A stretch of 18,929 bases of DNA from a virus: the UHGV virus genome UHGV-1353644; one strand, 5' to 3'. The position numbers and the translations under genes were made by a program. This document shows, piece by piece, positions 4,303-15,322 of this stretch. The notes beneath the pieces are model-generated. The model was not told the origin of the DNA. It saw nothing but the letters and a program-made list of their open reading frames with translations, and made no database searches. The first letter of the stretch is position 1. Each line of letters opens with the position of its first letter.

Positions 4303-4333
4303 GAAATAAAAAAGGGAGAGCCGAGGCTCTCCC
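4303..4333 (-). terminator. Rho-independent terminator after the 49-aa ORF
   Basis: Minus-strand RNA: 8-bp GC-rich stem GGGAGAGC / GCUCUCCC with a 4-nt loop, immediately followed by UUUUUUAUUU. Confidence 0.7.
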
Positions 4334-4338
4334 TAAAA

Positions 4339-6282: not shown

Positions 6283-6363
6283 TCACAGACGTCCGAAGAC
6301 GCCTTTGGTTTTAAGATTTTTACGATAGAACTGCATCACGTGTTCGTTGTGGAAATTACTCAT
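6283..6363 (-). CDS. stp: Stp peptide (26 aa), the T4 peptide that activates the host PrrC anticodon nuclease
   Basis: My own translation [26 protein letters not shown] matches recalled T4 Stp at nearly every position. Its ATG overlaps the TAA of ndd (TAATG). Absent from the ORF track because of length. Confidence 0.8.
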
Positions 6364-8278: not shown

Positions 8279-8310
8279 TATAGTACCACAGTCCTTGTGG
8301 TATGTAAACC
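8279..8310 (-). promoter_or_regulatory. T4 early-type promoter downstream of denB
   Basis: Minus strand: TTTAAAAAATTT upstream, GTTTAC (complement of 8304-8309), 18 nt ending CTGTGG, TACTAT (complement of 8280-8285), leader ACAACTATCAACTGATAC. Near-identical to the motA promoter. Confidence 0.6.
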
Positions 8311-8325
8311 ATTTTGTGAAATTTT

Positions 8326-8883
8326 TTAAATGGAAAGATACCATCCGTTGTAGTTACTTTTTCTTACAACCTTACGAAGGTCTTCTCTATCACCAATGAA
8401 CTTCGGAGTGTACTGGATGACACCTGGATGAATTTCTTTAGTGTTGAATATAATTATACAGTCAGCGACCTGATGATTCAGAATGGGCCCTAGATTTATT
8501 CCAGAACCGTATGGATACTCTCCGCTGCATCCTGTTGTTACCGAAATCCAACGAGAGTCAGTTTGATGTGTTTTGACTTCTACTCGAAGCCCACAGTATT
8601 TTGGATGTGCCAAAACATCCCATGCATATGTATACGGGTCATCTACATCTTCTTGACCTTTGTTAACATATCCACTTAACCAATCTGCTACAACATACTC
8701 GGCATACACTGCGATACGGCATCTTTCGATAACTTCTGCCTTATCCTGATTTGGATTTTGCTTTAAAGAATATCTCGCAGTATCAGCAATTTTGACCTTC
8801 ATTTCACTAGTCAAGTCACCGTTCGATAGGGTAAATGTCGGAATCTGAAATAGTCTCTGTAACCCCGGATTCGTTTTCTGCAT
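8326..8883 (-). CDS. denB: Endonuclease IV DenB-like (185 aa)
   Basis: Length and position between rIIB and ndd agree with recalled T4 denB. SD AAGGAAA upstream of the ATG at 8883. No diagnostic motif checked. Confidence 0.65.
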   Translation of the reverse strand: MQKTNPGLQRLFQIPTFTLSNGDLTSEMKVKIADTARYSLKQNPNQDKAEVIERCRIAVYAEYVVADWLSGYVNKGQEDVDDPYTYAWDVLAHPKYCGLRVEVKTHQTDSRWISVTTGCSGEYPYGSGINLGPILNHQVADCIIIFNTKEIHPGVIQYTPKFIGDREDLRKVVRKSNYNGWYLSI

Positions 8884-9145
8884 TTAGACTTTCCTTTTTA
8901 CCGCTGAGATAAGCGTTATACACTTTAAGAGTACCGTAGTAAATTCGATCGTTTTCATCTAAAGACTCGCGGTCAAGTTCATCGAGTTCCTTTTTATCCA
9001 TGACTATAACATCATTGCAGTAAAGAAACCCAAGTTTTTCGTGACCAAACTCTAATTTATTACAATACACAATGTTAGCGTGATGATTACCATGTAAAGA
9101 AATTTCTTTCATGTCGGAATCACCGATATTCATACAATAAATCAT
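8816..9145 (-). CDS. Hypothetical protein (109 aa); 3' end overlaps the denB start by 68 nt
   Basis: ORF track; SD AAGGTGA upstream of the ATG at 9145. Acidic C-terminal half; contains GDSD...HGNHH. Confidence 0.5.
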   Translation of the reverse strand: MIYCMNIGDSDMKEISLHGNHHANIVYCNKLEFGHEKLGFLYCNDVIVMDKKELDELDRESLDENDRIYYGTLKVYNAYLSGKKESLNAENESGVTETISDSDIYPIER

Positions 9146-9155
9146 AATTCACCTT

Positions 9156-9178
9156 AAAACAAAAGGGCCGAAGCCCTT
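9156..9178 (-). terminator. Rho-independent terminator (UUCG-loop hairpin plus U-tract) after the 64-aa ORF
   Basis: Minus-strand RNA: AAGGGC-UUCG-GCCCUU followed by UUGUUUU. The stem includes the ORF's stop codon. Confidence 0.6.
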
Positions 9179-9188
9179 ATTTAAATTG
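9163..9188. repeat. 26-bp direct repeat, copy 1 (aagggccgaagcccttatttaaattg)
   Basis: Identical to 9386-9411. Covers the last codons (QFK-stop) of the 64-aa ORF plus the UUCG hairpin. Confidence 0.85.
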
Positions 9189-9371
9189 CGCAATTCTTTT
9201 CTCTAGACATTCAGCATAAGATTTCATTGAGATAAACTGTGAAAGCAGTAATTCTTGTTCAACTTCATTAACTGTTAGAAACTTCGTGCTTTCTAAAAAT
9301 TTGCCCAGTGCATTAATTTTGAGCATTAATTGTTCGTATTCTTCTTTTACTCGTGCTTGATAACCTAACAT
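9177..9371 (-). CDS. Hypothetical protein (64 aa), predicted helical
   Basis: ORF track; SD AAGGAAA upstream of the ATG at 9371. Flanked by the two copies of the 26-bp repeat. Confidence 0.6.
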   Translation of the reverse strand: MLGYQARVKEEYEQLMLKINALGKFLESTKFLTVNEVEQELLLSQFISMKSYAECLEKRIAQFK

Positions 9372-9385
9372 AATTTTCCTTAGTT

Positions 9386-9411
9386 AAGGGCCGAAGCCCT
9401 TATTTAAATTG
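9386..9411. repeat. 26-bp direct repeat, copy 2 (aagggccgaagcccttatttaaattg)
   Basis: Identical to 9163-9188. Covers the last codons (QFK-stop) of rIIB plus the UUCG hairpin; here no U-tract follows. Confidence 0.85.
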
Positions 9412-10338
9412 TTCAGTAACGTCTTCAACTACTTCGTATTGACAGGTGCGCATTTTAGCATCGTTGTAATCAATCGGAATTGATACTACATCACGAGGAT
9501 GTACTTTAACTTTTACAACTCGGCTGGTTGAACTACCGAAGTGACGAATATAAGATTTAGAACACACATGCAAACCACGAGAACAAGTTTGTGTATCATC
9601 GTCATTCACACGAGTACGCGGCATTTTAACTACTTTACCCGGACTGTTATCAAAGGTATTTGAGTGGCAATCAAAGTAATTGCTGCGAACTACTTTCCAA
9701 GCATAGAAGTAACCATCTTCTGTGATTTCAATATCGTTTGCTACCAAAAAATCAAAGAGTCGAGATACCGCTTTTTGGCTCGGGTTTTCCAACAGATTTT
9801 CCAAGAACGGAAAATAAAATTCAAAGTTTTCGCCTTTTTCCATCGAGTCAAGAATACGATCAACTAGACCAGACCGCAATTCGATATTTTGATAAAACAA
9901 GCTTCCACCTTCAATTCGAACATCACCGGAAATATATTTTTCAACAGCGCGACGAACATTAATTTTTTGTGCTGCTTCTTCCAACTTATCCGCTACGAGC
10001 AGATTAAGAATTTCCTGGAAGTTTGAATGAGTGTTAGGAGTTGCGTTATAAGTTACACCGTCAACAGTAATTGAAATGAATTTTTTAGAAGCATTCCAAA
10101 TAATGTCAGATTTAGCAACTGGAGCAATAGCTACATCGCTATTAACTTTAACTGTAATGTCACCACTAATAGTAACTTTAGAGCGTTCAGCTTCTTCAGC
10201 ATTTTTCAAAACACGACGGATTGTGTCAACCGATACACCCTTCCAATCAGCCAGTTCCTGCTGAGTATAATTACCGCTTGAATATAGTTCAACGATTTCA
10301 GCTTGTTCGTTTTTGGTCAGGCATTTAATATTGTACAT
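9400..10338 (-). CDS. rIIB: rIIB protein (312 aa)
   Basis: Length 312 aa as in T4; lies immediately downstream of rIIA with an 11-nt gap; translation begins MYNIKCLTKNEQAEIVELYSSGNYTQQELADWKGVS as recalled for T4 rIIB. Confidence 0.95.
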   Translation of the reverse strand: MYNIKCLTKNEQAEIVELYSSGNYTQQELADWKGVSVDTIRRVLKNAEEAERSKVTISGDITVKVNSDVAIAPVAKSDIIWNASKKFISITVDGVTYNATPNTHSNFQEILNLLVADKLEEAAQKINVRRAVEKYISGDVRIEGGSLFYQNIELRSGLVDRILDSMEKGENFEFYFPFLENLLENPSQKAVSRLFDFLVANDIEITEDGYFYAWKVVRSNYFDCHSNTFDNSPGKVVKMPRTRVNDDDTQTCSRGLHVCSKSYIRHFGSSTSRVVKVKVHPRDVVSIPIDYNDAKMRTCQYEVVEDVTEQFK

Positions 10339-10349
10339 AATTTTCCTTA

Positions 10350-12527
10350 TTAGGCCGCAAGGGCCTTCATAGTTTTAGCGATTTGGGAAACTTCATCATC
10401 ACTTAAAGAGTTGCGATATCCGATGAAGTCGGAAACAATACGGAATTTCTTGGTAAACTCAGCAACCATTTTATCACTGTTTTTTGAAGCATTATATGAT
10501 AATTTATCAAAAAGATTAGTTACTGTCCAGATGTCATGACCGATGGTATCTTTTCCACCGTTAAAATATACACCCTGTAATGAACTAACCATATTAGCGA
10601 GTCGTGTATATTTTTCAGAAACTTCATCTGTACTGAAGTACTTCATCATAAAATCTAACTCAGGATACTTGATGATTTTATCAATATATCGTTTAGCTGA
10701 ACTTGAATAACCTACGTACTCATCATAATCTACATCATCAAAAGCATCTACATATAAATCACGCACAGTTTCAAAAATACATTGGCACTGACCAAGTTCT
10801 TTTACCTTTTTCTGTAAAAGAGGACGAATAACATAAAATTCATTAATGCCAATAAGATTAGCCATACGAATCAAAATATTCATAGATGGATTACAAAGAG
10901 ATGTAGTACCATCCATAGAGAAAATATCAGAACGATGCATATACGCTACATAACCAGTAATTTCATCTGCTTCTGACGTAAGCGTAAATAGTTCTTCTTT
11001 TTCCCAACGCCCATCTTTAATTTCAAACTTAAATGCTGTAGCAGCTTTAGGACGAGGAGCTTTACTTTTAACTGCCTTCGGAATATAGCTTTTAACTAAA
11101 GCTTCAATTTCTGACAAATAATGAATGTTAACTTCATCACTTTCAAACATCGCCATAATATCAGGAAGTAAATCAATTTGTGATTCTACTTCTGGATTAA
11201 TAAACAGAAGACGCTCATTATGATGAATATTTAAAGTGTTATTAAATTCACTATCATCTAACGCATGTGCTAATCCACGGACAATATTAACACGATTTTT
11301 AATATCATCAATAACGATATTAATTTTTGTTGTATTAATACCGAACAGACGATAGCTTGATGCAACGGCTGAAGTTTCATGGCTTTGCTTAATGCGTTTC
11401 AGTCGAGGGTCAAGATTTACTTCATACACAACCCCTGCATTACATAACTTACTATCAGGTTCAAACATGCTCTGCATCTTCTTATATGACAGATTTTTAG
11501 TCGTGAATTTGACTGAATTACTAATCATATAATCTCGAGCAGAATATCCCATCTTCATCAATTCACGATATGTGTGACGAGGAGATGTAGATTCTTTAAA
11601 TCGTTTTACATCTTCATTAAATGCTTGCTCACTGAGTTCTTTAACTCGTTCAATAATATTTTTACGAGTACGATCATCCAGTGAAAGAGCCTCGCGAGAT
11701 GGAGCAATATCAAGTGAACCCATTGGAAACTTAATGTAATTCACTTCATTACGAATGCTTAGCCAGTTACGCTCTCTAATAACACCATCAATAGGATAAA
11801 CAATACCGCCATAGATAGCATACAATCCACCACGATCAGGCCAATATCTTTCTGGATTTACGCCATAGTAGTCATCAAAATCCGGAAAATAATCAATTTC
11901 ACGGTCAAGACCATTAATGATAGCCAAATCTTTGAACGGCCGCATGATATAAGAAACTTCATAAGCAAAGTTTCTAAAGTCTTTTTCTTCAACTGGAACT
12001 ACGATTTCAATACCAGTTTTATCATCTGGACCCATTTCTTTTACGAATGTAGGTTTAATTTGTGGACCATCGCCATCCATATAAGCTACATAACCACGAA
12101 TTTCGCCTTTATGATACGAAGTAATACTAAACGTATCAGTATAACTAAATGGAGATTTAGAACCTAAACCAAATCCGCCAATGAAATCGTTGGATTCGGC
12201 TTTAGATGAACTGAAGTATGAATTATACAGACCAGGAGAATTATCATCACCCTGAATATCAAAATCACTCATACCTGGACCAAAATCTCGGCAAACAAAT
12301 CGCGGATCTAATCGTCCAGGAACTTGTATGATAAATTTTTCAGGATTTCCATTGAGTGCATGAGCATCAATCATGTTAGTAATTAATTCACGGACTACTG
12401 CGCGAATCTTGTTTGTATACAAATCAGACGACAAAATTTTAAATACTTTAGGAGATGCTGTGATGCTAAATGCTTTTGATTTAGAACCATTACCAAGAAT
12501 TGTTTCTTTTTCAGTGGTGATAATCAT
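10350..12527 (-). CDS. rIIA: rIIA protein (725 aa) with N-terminal GHKL-type ATPase fold
   Basis: Length 725 aa as in T4; translation carries GHKL motifs ([11 protein letters not shown]-box, RDFGPGM G1, [10 protein letters not shown]2) and matches recalled T4 rIIA. Confidence 0.95.
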
Positions 12528-14613: not shown

Positions 14614-14640
14614 CACTTATCCTCGTTTGGTTTCGGGAAT

Positions 14641-14666
14641 ATTATACTCCGGTAATCATAAAGCTA
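14641..14666 (-). promoter_or_regulatory. Candidate MotA-dependent middle promoter upstream of gp39
   Basis: Minus strand: TTTAGCTTTA (MotA-box-like, consensus TGCTTtA), 12 nt, TATAAT (complement of 14641-14646), about 25 nt upstream of the gp39 ATG. Confidence 0.5.
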
Positions 14667-14682
14667 AAGGCCCGAAGGCCTT
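14667..14682 (-). other. UUCG-tetraloop RNA hairpin immediately after the lipoprotein stop codon
   Basis: Minus-strand RNA: AAGGCC-UUCG-GGCCUU. The following sequence is only partly U-rich, so a stabiliser or weak terminator. Confidence 0.5.
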
Positions 14683-14943
14683 TTATTTAAAACGAATAGT
14701 CGAATCCTTAAAGAACAGCCCAGAACATACTGTTCCTTCTACTTTCTGCCCGGTAGGTCCAATAGCACGAAATCCAGTATGTTGGAAATCATTTTCAGAG
14801 CAACCAAACCAATTGTATCCAGTGATTTCAATATTAGTAAACCCACTTGAAGATAAAACTTTGGTTGCATTATCAGCATCAGTACATCCTACTAAAGATA
14901 CTGCTAATACTAATGCCGCGATAGAACGATTAACATATTTCAT
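14683..14943 (-). CDS. Predicted small lipoprotein (86 aa from ATG)
   Basis: Translation MKYVNRSIAALVLAVSLVGCTDADN... has a signal peptide with lipobox LVGC and two further Cys in the mature part. ATG at 14943 (the track extends to TTG 14955). Confidence 0.6.
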   Translation of the reverse strand: MKYVNRSIAALVLAVSLVGCTDADNATKVLSSSGFTNIEITGYNWFGCSENDFQHTGFRAIGPTGQKVEGTVCSGLFFKDSTIRFK

Positions 14944-14947
14944 AATT

Positions 14948-15322
14948 TCACTCAAATTTAATGGCTTGAAGGAGACTAATAATTCTTAAACGGCTTCTTT
15001 CATCTTTAACTGTAAAAGAAAGAGGGTCGCCAGATTTCATAGTGATAGTGCATTCAAAATCAAAATTTTCGGGAACTTCTTCGAAGAAGTCAAATTCTTC
15101 ATCATAAATTAGAACTTCACTCCGCAGACTGTGAAGAATTTTTCCAGCATTTCTGCTAGTTGCTGTACTAATCATCGTAACATTGCGACCTTTCATATCT
15201 TCAACGATAAATTCGCTTGTAGATATTACAGCATTAATAGAACCATTCCTGTGAATAGCAGACATTAGATATTTCTTTTCTTCGCCTTCGCGAATGCGAT
15301 ATTTCTTACCGATTTTAAACAT
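14948..15322 (-). CDS. Hypothetical protein (124 aa)
   Basis: ORF track; its ATG sits 2 nt after the stop of the zinc-ribbon ORF. Confidence 0.6.
   Translation of the reverse strand: MFKIGKKYRIREGEEKKYLMSAIHRNGSINAVISTSEFIVEDMKGRNVTMISTATSRNAGKILHSLRSEVLIYDEEFDFFEEVPENFDFECTITMKSGDPLSFTVKDERSRLRIISLLQAIKFE

Follow-up and report, generated by a model that had tools for sequence, protein, structure and literature searches.

In the window, the whole 18,929-nt stretch of viral DNA that was analysed, a perfect 26-bp direct repeat brackets an open reading frame (ORF) of 64 aa next to rIIB. The question raised by this locus is whether the repeat marks an insertion, as proposed in the initial annotation, which regarded it as a possible cassette scar and the 64-aa gene as a candidate horizontally acquired accessory gene, or whether two unrelated genes came to share one ending in some other way.

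A search of the whole window returned exact copies of the 26-mer AAGGGCCGAAGCCCTTATTTAAATTG at 9163–9188 and 9386–9411, two in all and placed as first annotated, with no third match in the window at up to three mismatches. No match arose in 200 dinucleotide shuffles, and the 26-bp identity is far above the chance expectation for random sequence; it is confined to these 26 bp, with bases differing beyond both ends. A 2.1-kb region of the locus matches about 500 Tequatrovirus (T4-like) records at more than 90% identity, the best being PaulHMueller (97%), whose rIIB is 99.7% identical to that of the window. The locus is the Tequatrovirus (T4-like) rIIA–rIIB–denB.1–DUF7418–denB region, in which all genes lie on the minus strand (rIIA at 10350–12527) and the following features are found.

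9400..10338, minus strand: rIIB, 312 aa, ending in ...VTEQFK-stop, with its stop codon TAA at 9400–9402 (phrog_609 RIIB, 4.4e-111)
9386..9411, no strand assigned: repeat copy B, 26 bp, the last three rIIB codons, stop codon and hairpin; exact match
9385..9402, minus strand: site-B hairpin UAAGGGC-UUCG-GCCCUUA, a 7 bp stem with a C(UUCG)G tetraloop, −10.1 kcal/mol, without a U-tract
9177..9371, minus strand: denB.1, 64 aa, a small helical protein (Pfam PF21825, crAss001_48-related; phrog_774, 8.8e-22)
9163..9188, no strand assigned: repeat copy A, 26 bp, the last three denB.1 codons, stop codon (9177–9179) and hairpin; exact match
9156..9178, minus strand: site-A intrinsic-terminator-like element, a hairpin (9163–9178) running into UUUUGUUUU (9156–9164) and then the SD AAGGUG (9150–9155)
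8816..9145, minus strand: DUF7418 gene, 109 aa, phrog_2237, the next gene downstream of the distal hairpin
8326..8883, minus strand: denB (endonuclease IV), 185-aa reading, phrog_1360 (4e-97), overlapping the 3' end of the DUF7418 gene by 68 nt

The 64-aa ORF is T4 denB.1: the T4 protein (NP_049888) is encoded at the same position, between rIIB and denB, and the Pfam match to PF21825 scores 68.8 bits against a gathering threshold of 24.8. Both PF21825 and phrog_774 are families without an assigned function, searches of PDB sequences and NCBIfam gave no match for denB.1 or the DUF7418 protein, and a literature search on denB.1 gave a single incidental mention. Members of the PF21825 family also occur in very distant phages (crAss-like, Sinorhizobium and Achromobacter). 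The DUF7418 gene is missing or deleted in T4, T2, AR1 and PhiZZ30. A stem_loop after denB.1 is already annotated in the T4D record X75802 (358–377), as is a predicted terminator in G2133 and several newer records.

Focusing on the mRNA sense of the two copies, copy B follows rIIB as GAA CAA UUU AAA UAA-GGGCUUCGGCCCUU-AACUAAGGAAAAUUAUG and copy A follows the 64-aa ORF as GCG CAA UUU AAA UAA-GGGCUUCGGCCCUU-UUGUUUUAAGGUGAAUUAUG, and QFK is the C-terminus of both products. As had been described, each copy comprises, on the minus strand, Q-F-K-stop and an AAGGGC-UUCG-GCCCUU hairpin; a C–G pair closes the UUCG loop, and two bases are shared between the stop codon and the stem. The two hairpins are spaced 223 bp apart, and in isolation they fold with −8.8 to −10.1 kcal/mol. 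The z-scores of 61–68-nt contexts are unremarkable (−2.2 and −0.66), so that the signal is a short local hairpin rather than a bigger structure, and a search against Rfam gave no match at E ≤ 1. Site A has the make-up of an intrinsic terminator, a GC-rich stem-loop and a U-tract on the transcribed strand, by virtue of UUUUGUUUU, and is the sole minus-strand terminator-like match in 8300–10500. The tail of site B in the window is AACUAAGG, without a U-tract, which bears out the earlier observation that only the distal copy, copy A, looks like a terminator. A U-rich tail does follow site B in Mosig-, Winkler-, Marfa- and Kanagawa-type loci. The SD of denB.1, AAGGA (9377–9381), begins 4 nt past the site-B core hairpin, with its ATG at 9369–9371.

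As regards the insertion, the distribution of the bracketed gene does not bear it out. At the level of Tequatrovirus, denB.1 was found in 497 records (tblastn), compared with 498 for rIIB and 497 for the site-A junction, with 90–98% denB.1 identity across the genus, and a search of IMG/VR viral contigs gave five loci, all of them Tequatrovirus. Essentially no presence/absence variation of denB.1 was seen in these ~497 records, which is not the behaviour of a recent, moron-like cassette. The initial annotation had pointed to T4, T2, T6 and the RB series for comparison; the T4, T2, T6 and RB phages of Tequatrovirus all have denB.1, always with both hairpins, which, among close relatives, is the arrangement that it had named as speaking against its own proposal. 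The wider survey, which used an annotated phage collection and rIIB-anchored loci, gave the order rIIB–denB.1–DUF7418 gene (~100 aa)–denB in five other genera.

Dhakavirus: QL01; dhabil without an annotated DUF7418 CDS
Gaprivervirus: VR20
Marfavirus
Winklervirus: CHI14
Kanagawavirus: Kosakonia phage 305

The full order of these genes is also kept in most of the 33 rIIB loci from viral contigs, and absence of denB.1 is confined to the genus level (Mosigvirus and lineages L056, L057 and L059). No hairpin separates denB.1 from the next gene in Dhaka-, Gapriver-, Marfa- and Kanagawavirus, where its stop codon abuts or overlaps the following start codon, and these four genera thus show that the presence of denB.1 is independent of the repeat pair. 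The identity of denB.1 to that of Dhaka-, Gapriver-, Marfa-, Winkler- and Kanagawavirus (57, 51, 48, 45 and 48%) broadly follows that of rIIB (66, 65, 62, 55 and 66%), and is equal to or higher than that of the adjacent DUF7418 gene (41–46%). Judging from synteny and divergence, denB.1 appears to be vertically inherited, not inserted, and neither the insertion scar nor the horizontally acquired accessory gene of the initial annotation finds a place in these data.

The hairpins likewise prove to be old. A hairpin lies approximately 0–12 nt from the rIIB stop codon in most of the T4-like lineages surveyed, with a UUCG loop in nearly every case (Tequatro-, Mosig-, Dhaka-, Gapriver-, Kanagawa-, Marfa- and Winklervirus and lineages L050, L057, L058 and L059), and its stem varies by lineage (AAGGGC, GGAGGC, GGGGC, GGGGAC, GGAGAC and GGGCC). 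A hairpin after denB.1 is found in Tequatrovirus, CHI14, L050, L058 and L053–55; in L053–55 the rIIB stop codon overlaps the denB.1 ATG and the distal hairpin is the only one. Among 18 hairpins, compensatory double changes were observed at six of six stem pairs and 97.2% of cells were paired, a percentage inflated by the centring of the covariation segments on detected stems; it was reached by none of 500 shuffles, and no slid register came close. The stop-proximal UUCG hairpins after rIIB and/or denB.1 are thus old, position-conserved and covarying. The window contains four UUCG hairpins, all intercistronic and on the minus (transcribed) strand, the other two being at 14666–14683 and 6287–6304. 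We considered and rejected the distal hairpin as a fresh duplicate of the rIIB hairpin peculiar to Tequatrovirus, given the post-denB.1 hairpins of CHI14, L050, L053–55 and L058. The 1-nt stem defects in T4 records NC_000866 and X75802 were likewise rejected as true divergence between the copies, since the stems of T4 strain 147, a resequenced T4, are perfect at both sites; they are probably old sequencing compressions.

How, then, did two such modules become identical over 26 bp? Sixteen of the 26 bases belong to a generic phage hairpin, and the exact 16-mer occurs in at least 120 unrelated viral-contig stretches, with A-rich sequence upstream and T-rich sequence downstream. Hairpin identity alone consequently says little, and it was dropped as evidence for copying; the specificity is carried by the remaining, locus-specific 10 nt, CAATTTAAAT. 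The TTTAAAT lead-in was found directly upstream of the 16-nt hairpin in none of 111 other contexts. In 23 Tequatrovirus genomes, site B is near-invariant (ACT GAA CAA TTT AAA TAA GGGC...), whereas site A is polymorphic at three linked positions and a 5–6-nt indel, with the following alleles.

Long (majority), GCA CAA TTC AA(A/G) TAA, AATAA(A) spacer and GGGC: T4, T2, ESh30, slur04, AR1, EC121 and others
Long with spacer variants: T6 and two IMG/VR contigs
Short GCG-TTT, GCG CAA TTT AAA TAA GGGC: the window
Short GCA-TTT, GCA CAA TTT AAA TAA GGGC: ECML-363, ZCEC15 and UGKSEcP2
Short GAA-TTT, GAA CAA TTT AAA TAA GGGC: PaulHMueller, JoYop, G2133, Sf23 and Sa45lw
Short GCA-TTC, GCA CAA TTC AAA TAA GGGC: PhiZZ30 and EC.W14-2
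Short GAA-TTC, GAA CAA TTC AAA TAA GGGC: SHFML-11

The short, rIIB-like allele is present in approximately 27 of 497 records (~5%, by matched span length), and none of the records is equal to the window over the 93 nt; in the GAA-TTT allele the repeat is 30 bp long and the denB.1 tail reads EQFK. At site A of the outgroups (L058, CHI14, L050 and L053–55), an (A/T)TAAAGG spacer lies between the stop codon and the stem, much as in the long form, and this resemblance indicates that the long form is ancestral. Grouped by 759 flanking columns, the short alleles are spread over at least five clusters, among which long-type genomes are interspersed. One tight cluster, with at most 14 flank differences, combines the long-type ESh30 with three short genomes, ECML-363 having TTT and Sf23 and Sa45lw both TTT and GAA; these three differ from ESh30 at 11–14 of the 759 flanking columns and yet carry two or three clustered site-A changes, all toward the site-B spelling. 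Similarly, G2133 and slur04, its closest neighbour, are separated by GCA>GAA, TTC>TTT, AAG>AAA and a 6-nt indel, all toward B, with 20 differences elsewhere in the alignment. From the hairpin outward, the B-like states form a nested series: TTT is confined to short alleles (9/9), as is GAA (6/6), five of these six also having TTT, counts that come from genomes picked partly by similarity to the window and phylogenetically clustered, such that the association statistics are not independent. SHFML-11 (GAA, TTC, short) breaks the strict nesting unless its donor site B had TTC, as in IMGVR_a. The site-A substitutions affect one base each, and the 5-nt indel, a tandem AATAA unit, could be gained or lost through slippage alone; homogenization is also incomplete, with loop and stem variants of site B in L027/L031, T6 and slur04 unmirrored at site A.

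We favour, with a probability of about 0.6, the reading that the repeat consists of two stop-codon-proximal C(UUCG)G hairpin modules, carried by the early-transcribed strand, around a conserved denB.1, homogenized by short-tract copying from site B to site A. The short site-A alleles are read as the outcome of recurrent short-tract conversion of the denB.1 copy by the rIIB copy. The 16 nt shared by the two sites (AAGGGC-UUCG-GCCCUU), 223 bp apart, would anchor ectopic gene conversion or template switching, by which the rIIB 3' end (GAA CAA TTT AAA TAA) would be copied leftward into the denB.1 3' end. In the window, the tract may have replaced an ancestral 'TTC AA(A/G) TAA + AATAA spacer' with the rIIB spelling, giving the 26-bp identity. 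Tracts of about 6 to 17 or more nt would account for the alleles, the window representing an intermediate one; other lineages would have received shorter or longer tracts, up to 30 bp of identity, the longer ones turning the denB.1 tail from AQFK into EQFK. Allelic recombination is high in T4-like phages, and one short allele could have spread across backgrounds.

An unlikely alternative is that nothing was ever copied between the sites, and that generic terminator design together with convergence, point mutation and AATAA slippage produced the likeness. The wide occurrence of the exact 16-mer in unrelated phages, with its A-rich upstream and T-rich downstream flanks, is what it would predict, and L058 carries the identical AAAGGGCTTCGGCCCTT after denB.1 though its rIIB hairpin differs. 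Moreover, a third gene of the window ends in RFK-stop (TTT AAA TAA) directly before a UUCG hairpin, a C-terminal F is native to both proteins in other genera, and the long and short forms differ by a slippage-prone 5-nt tandem unit. Against this stand the absence of TTTAAAT directly before the hairpin in all 111 other contexts and the concentration of the site-A changes within ~20 nt, every one toward the B spelling and nested from the hairpin; simple slippage, in particular, cannot yield the difference between G2133 and slur04. We regard as distinctly unlikely the proposal that Tequatrovirus started out with the short form, a fresh duplicate of the rIIB 3' module placed after denB.1, and that the long form arose once by AATAA duplication and synonymous drift, with allelic recombination scattering the short state. 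Adding one tandem 5-nt unit to the short form does give the long form, denB.1 has the QFK tail in Tequatrovirus only while EQF is native to the rIIB of Gaprivervirus, and the flank haplotypes show T4-like phages to be highly mosaic. The outgroup site A nevertheless resembles the long form, the short form is a matter of single tips or small groups beside long-type nearest neighbours, and its heterogeneity (GCG/GCA/GAA and TTT/TTC) would require several events in any case.

Entry of denB.1 as a horizontally acquired cassette through a shared hairpin, leaving the two copies as a scar, has in its favour the Mosigvirus loci described below, the PF21825 members of very distant phages and the documented insertion and deletion of PeSL type in T4-like phages. 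It is very improbable, given the common position of the gene in Tequatro-, Dhaka-, Gapriver-, Marfa-, Winkler- and Kanagawavirus, four of them with no repeat pair beside it, its occurrence throughout the ~497 Tequatrovirus genomes and an identity that broadly tracks rIIB and is at or above the level of the DUF7418 gene. In addition, the perfect 26-bp form is a derived minority allele and not the general state. For the lineage of the window, the insertion model is largely refuted.

The initial annotation had suggested looking in relatives for an empty site with one repeat copy, and such a site does exist in RB69. In RB69 and other Mosigvirus phages, which are devoid of denB.1, rIIB (...TELFAE-stop) is followed by one GGGGAC-UUCG-GUCCCC hairpin, UUUUUUCUUU, an SD and ATGAUU, the start of the DUF7418 homologue. 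The left flank of this hairpin is the rIIB end, and its right flank (U-tract, SD and ATGATT) matches the right flank of Tequatrovirus site A. This arrangement is consistent with, though not proof of, the product expected from deletion between two hairpins. As denB.1 is widespread in other genera, loss in Mosigvirus is more parsimonious than gain, and deletion of the gene could plausibly have used the repeat pair as its substrate. Recombination between flanking regulatory repeats (PeSLs) deletes single ORFs in T4-type phages (PMC2839356, PMC4122927), and less than 50 bp of homology is enough for recombination there (PMC2839356). Of the recombination at a shared hairpin envisaged in the initial annotation, the part that survives is recombination itself, to which the nested site-A alleles and the RB69 empty site point; cassette insertion and horizontal transfer do not.

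The functions of the two hairpins can be proposed from their anatomy and from what is established for intrinsic terminators and C(UUCG)G hairpins. Early and middle transcripts over rIIB would pass the proximal hairpin, allowing denB.1 to be translated, and this hairpin, which has no U-tract in Tequatrovirus, is most likely an RNA 3'-end or stability element or a weak attenuator. The distal hairpin and its U-tract may form an intrinsic terminator or attenuator of the rIIB–denB.1 unit, at which a fraction of the transcripts would end, the remainder running into the DUF7418 gene, whose SD follows the U-tract immediately, and denB. Both hairpins would shield the upstream mRNA from 3' exonucleases. 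A literature search found no transcript-end data for the rIIB region.

In conclusion, the element is of a known kind, a T4 intercistronic UUCG hairpin/terminator beside the annotated denB.1, and the findings leave the known T4 gene organization unchanged. The locus adds, modestly, evidence that two adjacent stop-hairpin modules evolve in concert, a process that in some lineages would have rewritten a protein tail; the locus may thus serve as a natural example of regulatory hairpins anchoring short-patch copying, by which unrelated proteins gain the same tail. Recombination between the hairpins is also a simple suggested route for the loss of denB.1 in Mosigvirus, and the case cautions that a perfect direct repeat around a small phage ORF can mimic an insertion scar. 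An unlikely and speculative extension would be that promoter-less stop-and-hairpin modules are a second class of PeSL-like linkers, copied between gene ends, rewriting C-termini (AQFK to EQFK) and letting denB.1-like genes excise and re-insert as ~220-bp circles; if true, the Mosigvirus empty site and the scattering of PF21825 members over unrelated phages would both be accounted for.

Comparison with known systems places the element close to several of them. Tuerk and co-workers reportedly described, in PNAS in 1988, C(UUCG)G hairpins between the cistrons of T4 mRNAs, and both copies in the window are similar in having a C–G-closed UUCG loop on the transcribed strand, between cistrons and right after a stop codon; our literature search for T4 intercistronic UUCG hairpins gave no match. 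The sole particularity here is a 26-bp identity between neighbouring copies that takes in the three final codons of each of two unrelated genes. The positions of intrinsic terminators are conserved among T4-like genomes (PMC1524935), and the distal copy resembles such terminators in its U-tract and in a position kept across genera with compensatory stem changes.

The PeSL cassettes of T4-type phages (Arbiol et al. 2010, PMC2839356; Comeau et al. 2014, PMC4122927) have a sigma-70-like early promoter (-35 ... N17 ... -10; TTTACW/TAYWAT, T4/PST pair) between the stem-loop and the SD (PMC4122927). The window is similar in its short repeated terminator stem-loop, SD and start codon flanking a small non-essential ORF: the stem-loop AAGGGC-UUCG-GCCCUU is present at both sites, followed on the 3' side by AAGGA...ATG (9381–9369) and AAGGUG...AUG (9155–9143). 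Flanking PeSL copies recombine to delete or insert an ORF or to yield mini-circles, and the Mosigvirus empty site resembles a product of such recombination. No minus-strand promoter-like match was found in 9130–9420, however, and the hairpin lies 14 nt (site B) or 17 nt (site A) from the next ATG. Membership of the PeSL class was rejected, since the interval is too short for a promoter and the prediction gave none; instead of holding a promoter, the repeat of the window runs into coding sequence.

The closest counterpart is the T4 denB.1 locus (NC_000866 T4p277; X75802; also G2133), with the same gene, position and hairpin. T4 differs from the window in having the long site A (CAA TTC AAG TAA AATAAA-GGGC...), such that its modules are not a perfect repeat, and in being without the downstream DUF7418 gene. 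As for the way in which the modules became alike, templated mutation or ectopic short-patch conversion between nearby repeats or quasi-repeats in the T4 rII region is said to have been described by Ripley and co-workers. The window differs in that the events are read from natural genome polymorphism, not from selected mutants, with direction and mechanism putative; like the rII events, they are clusters of small indels and base changes, all in agreement with a similar sequence close by and anchored on a repeat or palindrome.

The presence/absence variation at this locus is that of the DUF7418 gene and not of denB.1 (the 64-aa ORF at 9177–9371, which the initial annotation had taken as a candidate acquired gene), since a DUF7418 segment is deleted in T4, T2, PhiZZ30 and AR1. 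The segment missing from T4 and T2 is approximately 213 bp in length (window 8898–9110) and lies inside the 109-aa DUF7418 ORF (8816–9145) downstream of denB.1; the deletion in PhiZZ30 overlaps it with slightly different endpoints (about 8887–9115). In these three phages only the first ~12 DUF7418 codons are retained, joined to the sequence that immediately precedes the denB start. Short imperfect direct repeats, ATGAAAGAAA ... AAAAAGGAAAG, border the deletion in T4, and a further deletion, in AR1, lies between TGATT repeats. The 3' end of DUF7418 shares 68 nt (8816–8883), in another frame, with denB when the latter is read as a 185-aa protein starting at 8883, as in T4; many records, for example those of PaulHMueller and ECML-363, instead annotate a 158-aa denB that starts after the DUF7418 stop. 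A long denB ORF overlapping the upstream ORF is also found in other genera.

An Achromobacter jumbo phage, a Sinorhizobium phage and crAss-like Bacteroides phages encode weak but significant homologues of denB.1 (35–37% identity), and in PHROG profiles the 64-aa unit forms the C-terminal part of longer proteins. A sequence search for a solved structure of denB.1 found none.

Homogenisation between the repeat copy after denB.1 (site A, 9163–9188) and the copy after rIIB (site B, 9386–9411) appears to be mostly one-directional. In PaulHMueller, JoYop, G2133, Sf23, Sa45lw and SHFML-11 (EQFK-tail loci at site A: L002, L020, L016, L180, L181 and L019), denB.1 has E in place of A as its last-but-three residue, which gives it the same EQFK tail as rIIB; the amino-acid change was apparently imported along with the rIIB-like tract. 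The homogenisation of the two copies is incomplete, because the following site-B variants are not mirrored at site A.

Site B, T6: UCCG loop
Site B, two IMG/VR Tequatrovirus contigs (L027/L031): UUUG loop
Site B, slur04: stem-breaking G>T

The hairpins at 2725–2745 and 2955–2975 of locus L001 (T4 reference NC_000866), GGCUUCGGCCC after rIIB and GGGCUUCGGCC after denB.1, are each one G or C short, as are those in X75802, whereas the resequenced T4 strain 147 (KJ477685) carries a perfect GGGCUUCGGCCC at both sites. The missing G/C is probably a gel-compression error of 1980s–90s sequencing.

When the plus strand of 9163–9188 and 9385–9411 is read, both copies score as terminator-like, with a CGAA-loop hairpin and UUAUUUAAAUUG after it, since the sequence complementary to the QFK codons forms a U-rich tail. 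Judged from this sequence arrangement, both modules could be bidirectional and act against antisense (late-mode) transcription.

Other hairpins in the window are as follows.

14666–14683, minus strand: AAAGGCC-UUCG-GGCCUUU hairpin (flanks examined over 14620–14700)
6287–6304, minus strand: AGGCGUC-UUCG-GACGUCU, intercistronic on the transcribed strand, followed by a Shine–Dalgarno (SD) sequence and ATG
4313–4334, minus strand: strong AGGGAGAGC-CUCG-GCUCUCCCU with UUUUUAUUU, a terminator, intercistronic on the transcribed strand

Directly before the 14666–14683 hairpin, a third gene, the 90-aa ORF at 14683–14955, ends in RFK-stop (CGT TTT AAA TAA), and after the hairpin come a -10-like TATAAT and an SD sequence, where the 606-aa ORF of the topoisomerase large subunit then begins. 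The stem-loop-plus-promoter layout of the promoter-early stem-loop (PeSL) shuffling cassette is present in this module, but is absent from the rIIB and denB.1 modules. In three T4-like contigs of roughly 170 kb (L053–L055), the stop codon of rIIB and the start codon of denB.1 overlap (GCTAATG), and no hairpin separates the two genes; the sole hairpin, AAAGCCC-UUCG-GGGCUUU with a U-tract, lies 3' of denB.1, a mirror-image version of the arrangement in Dhakavirus/Gaprivervirus.
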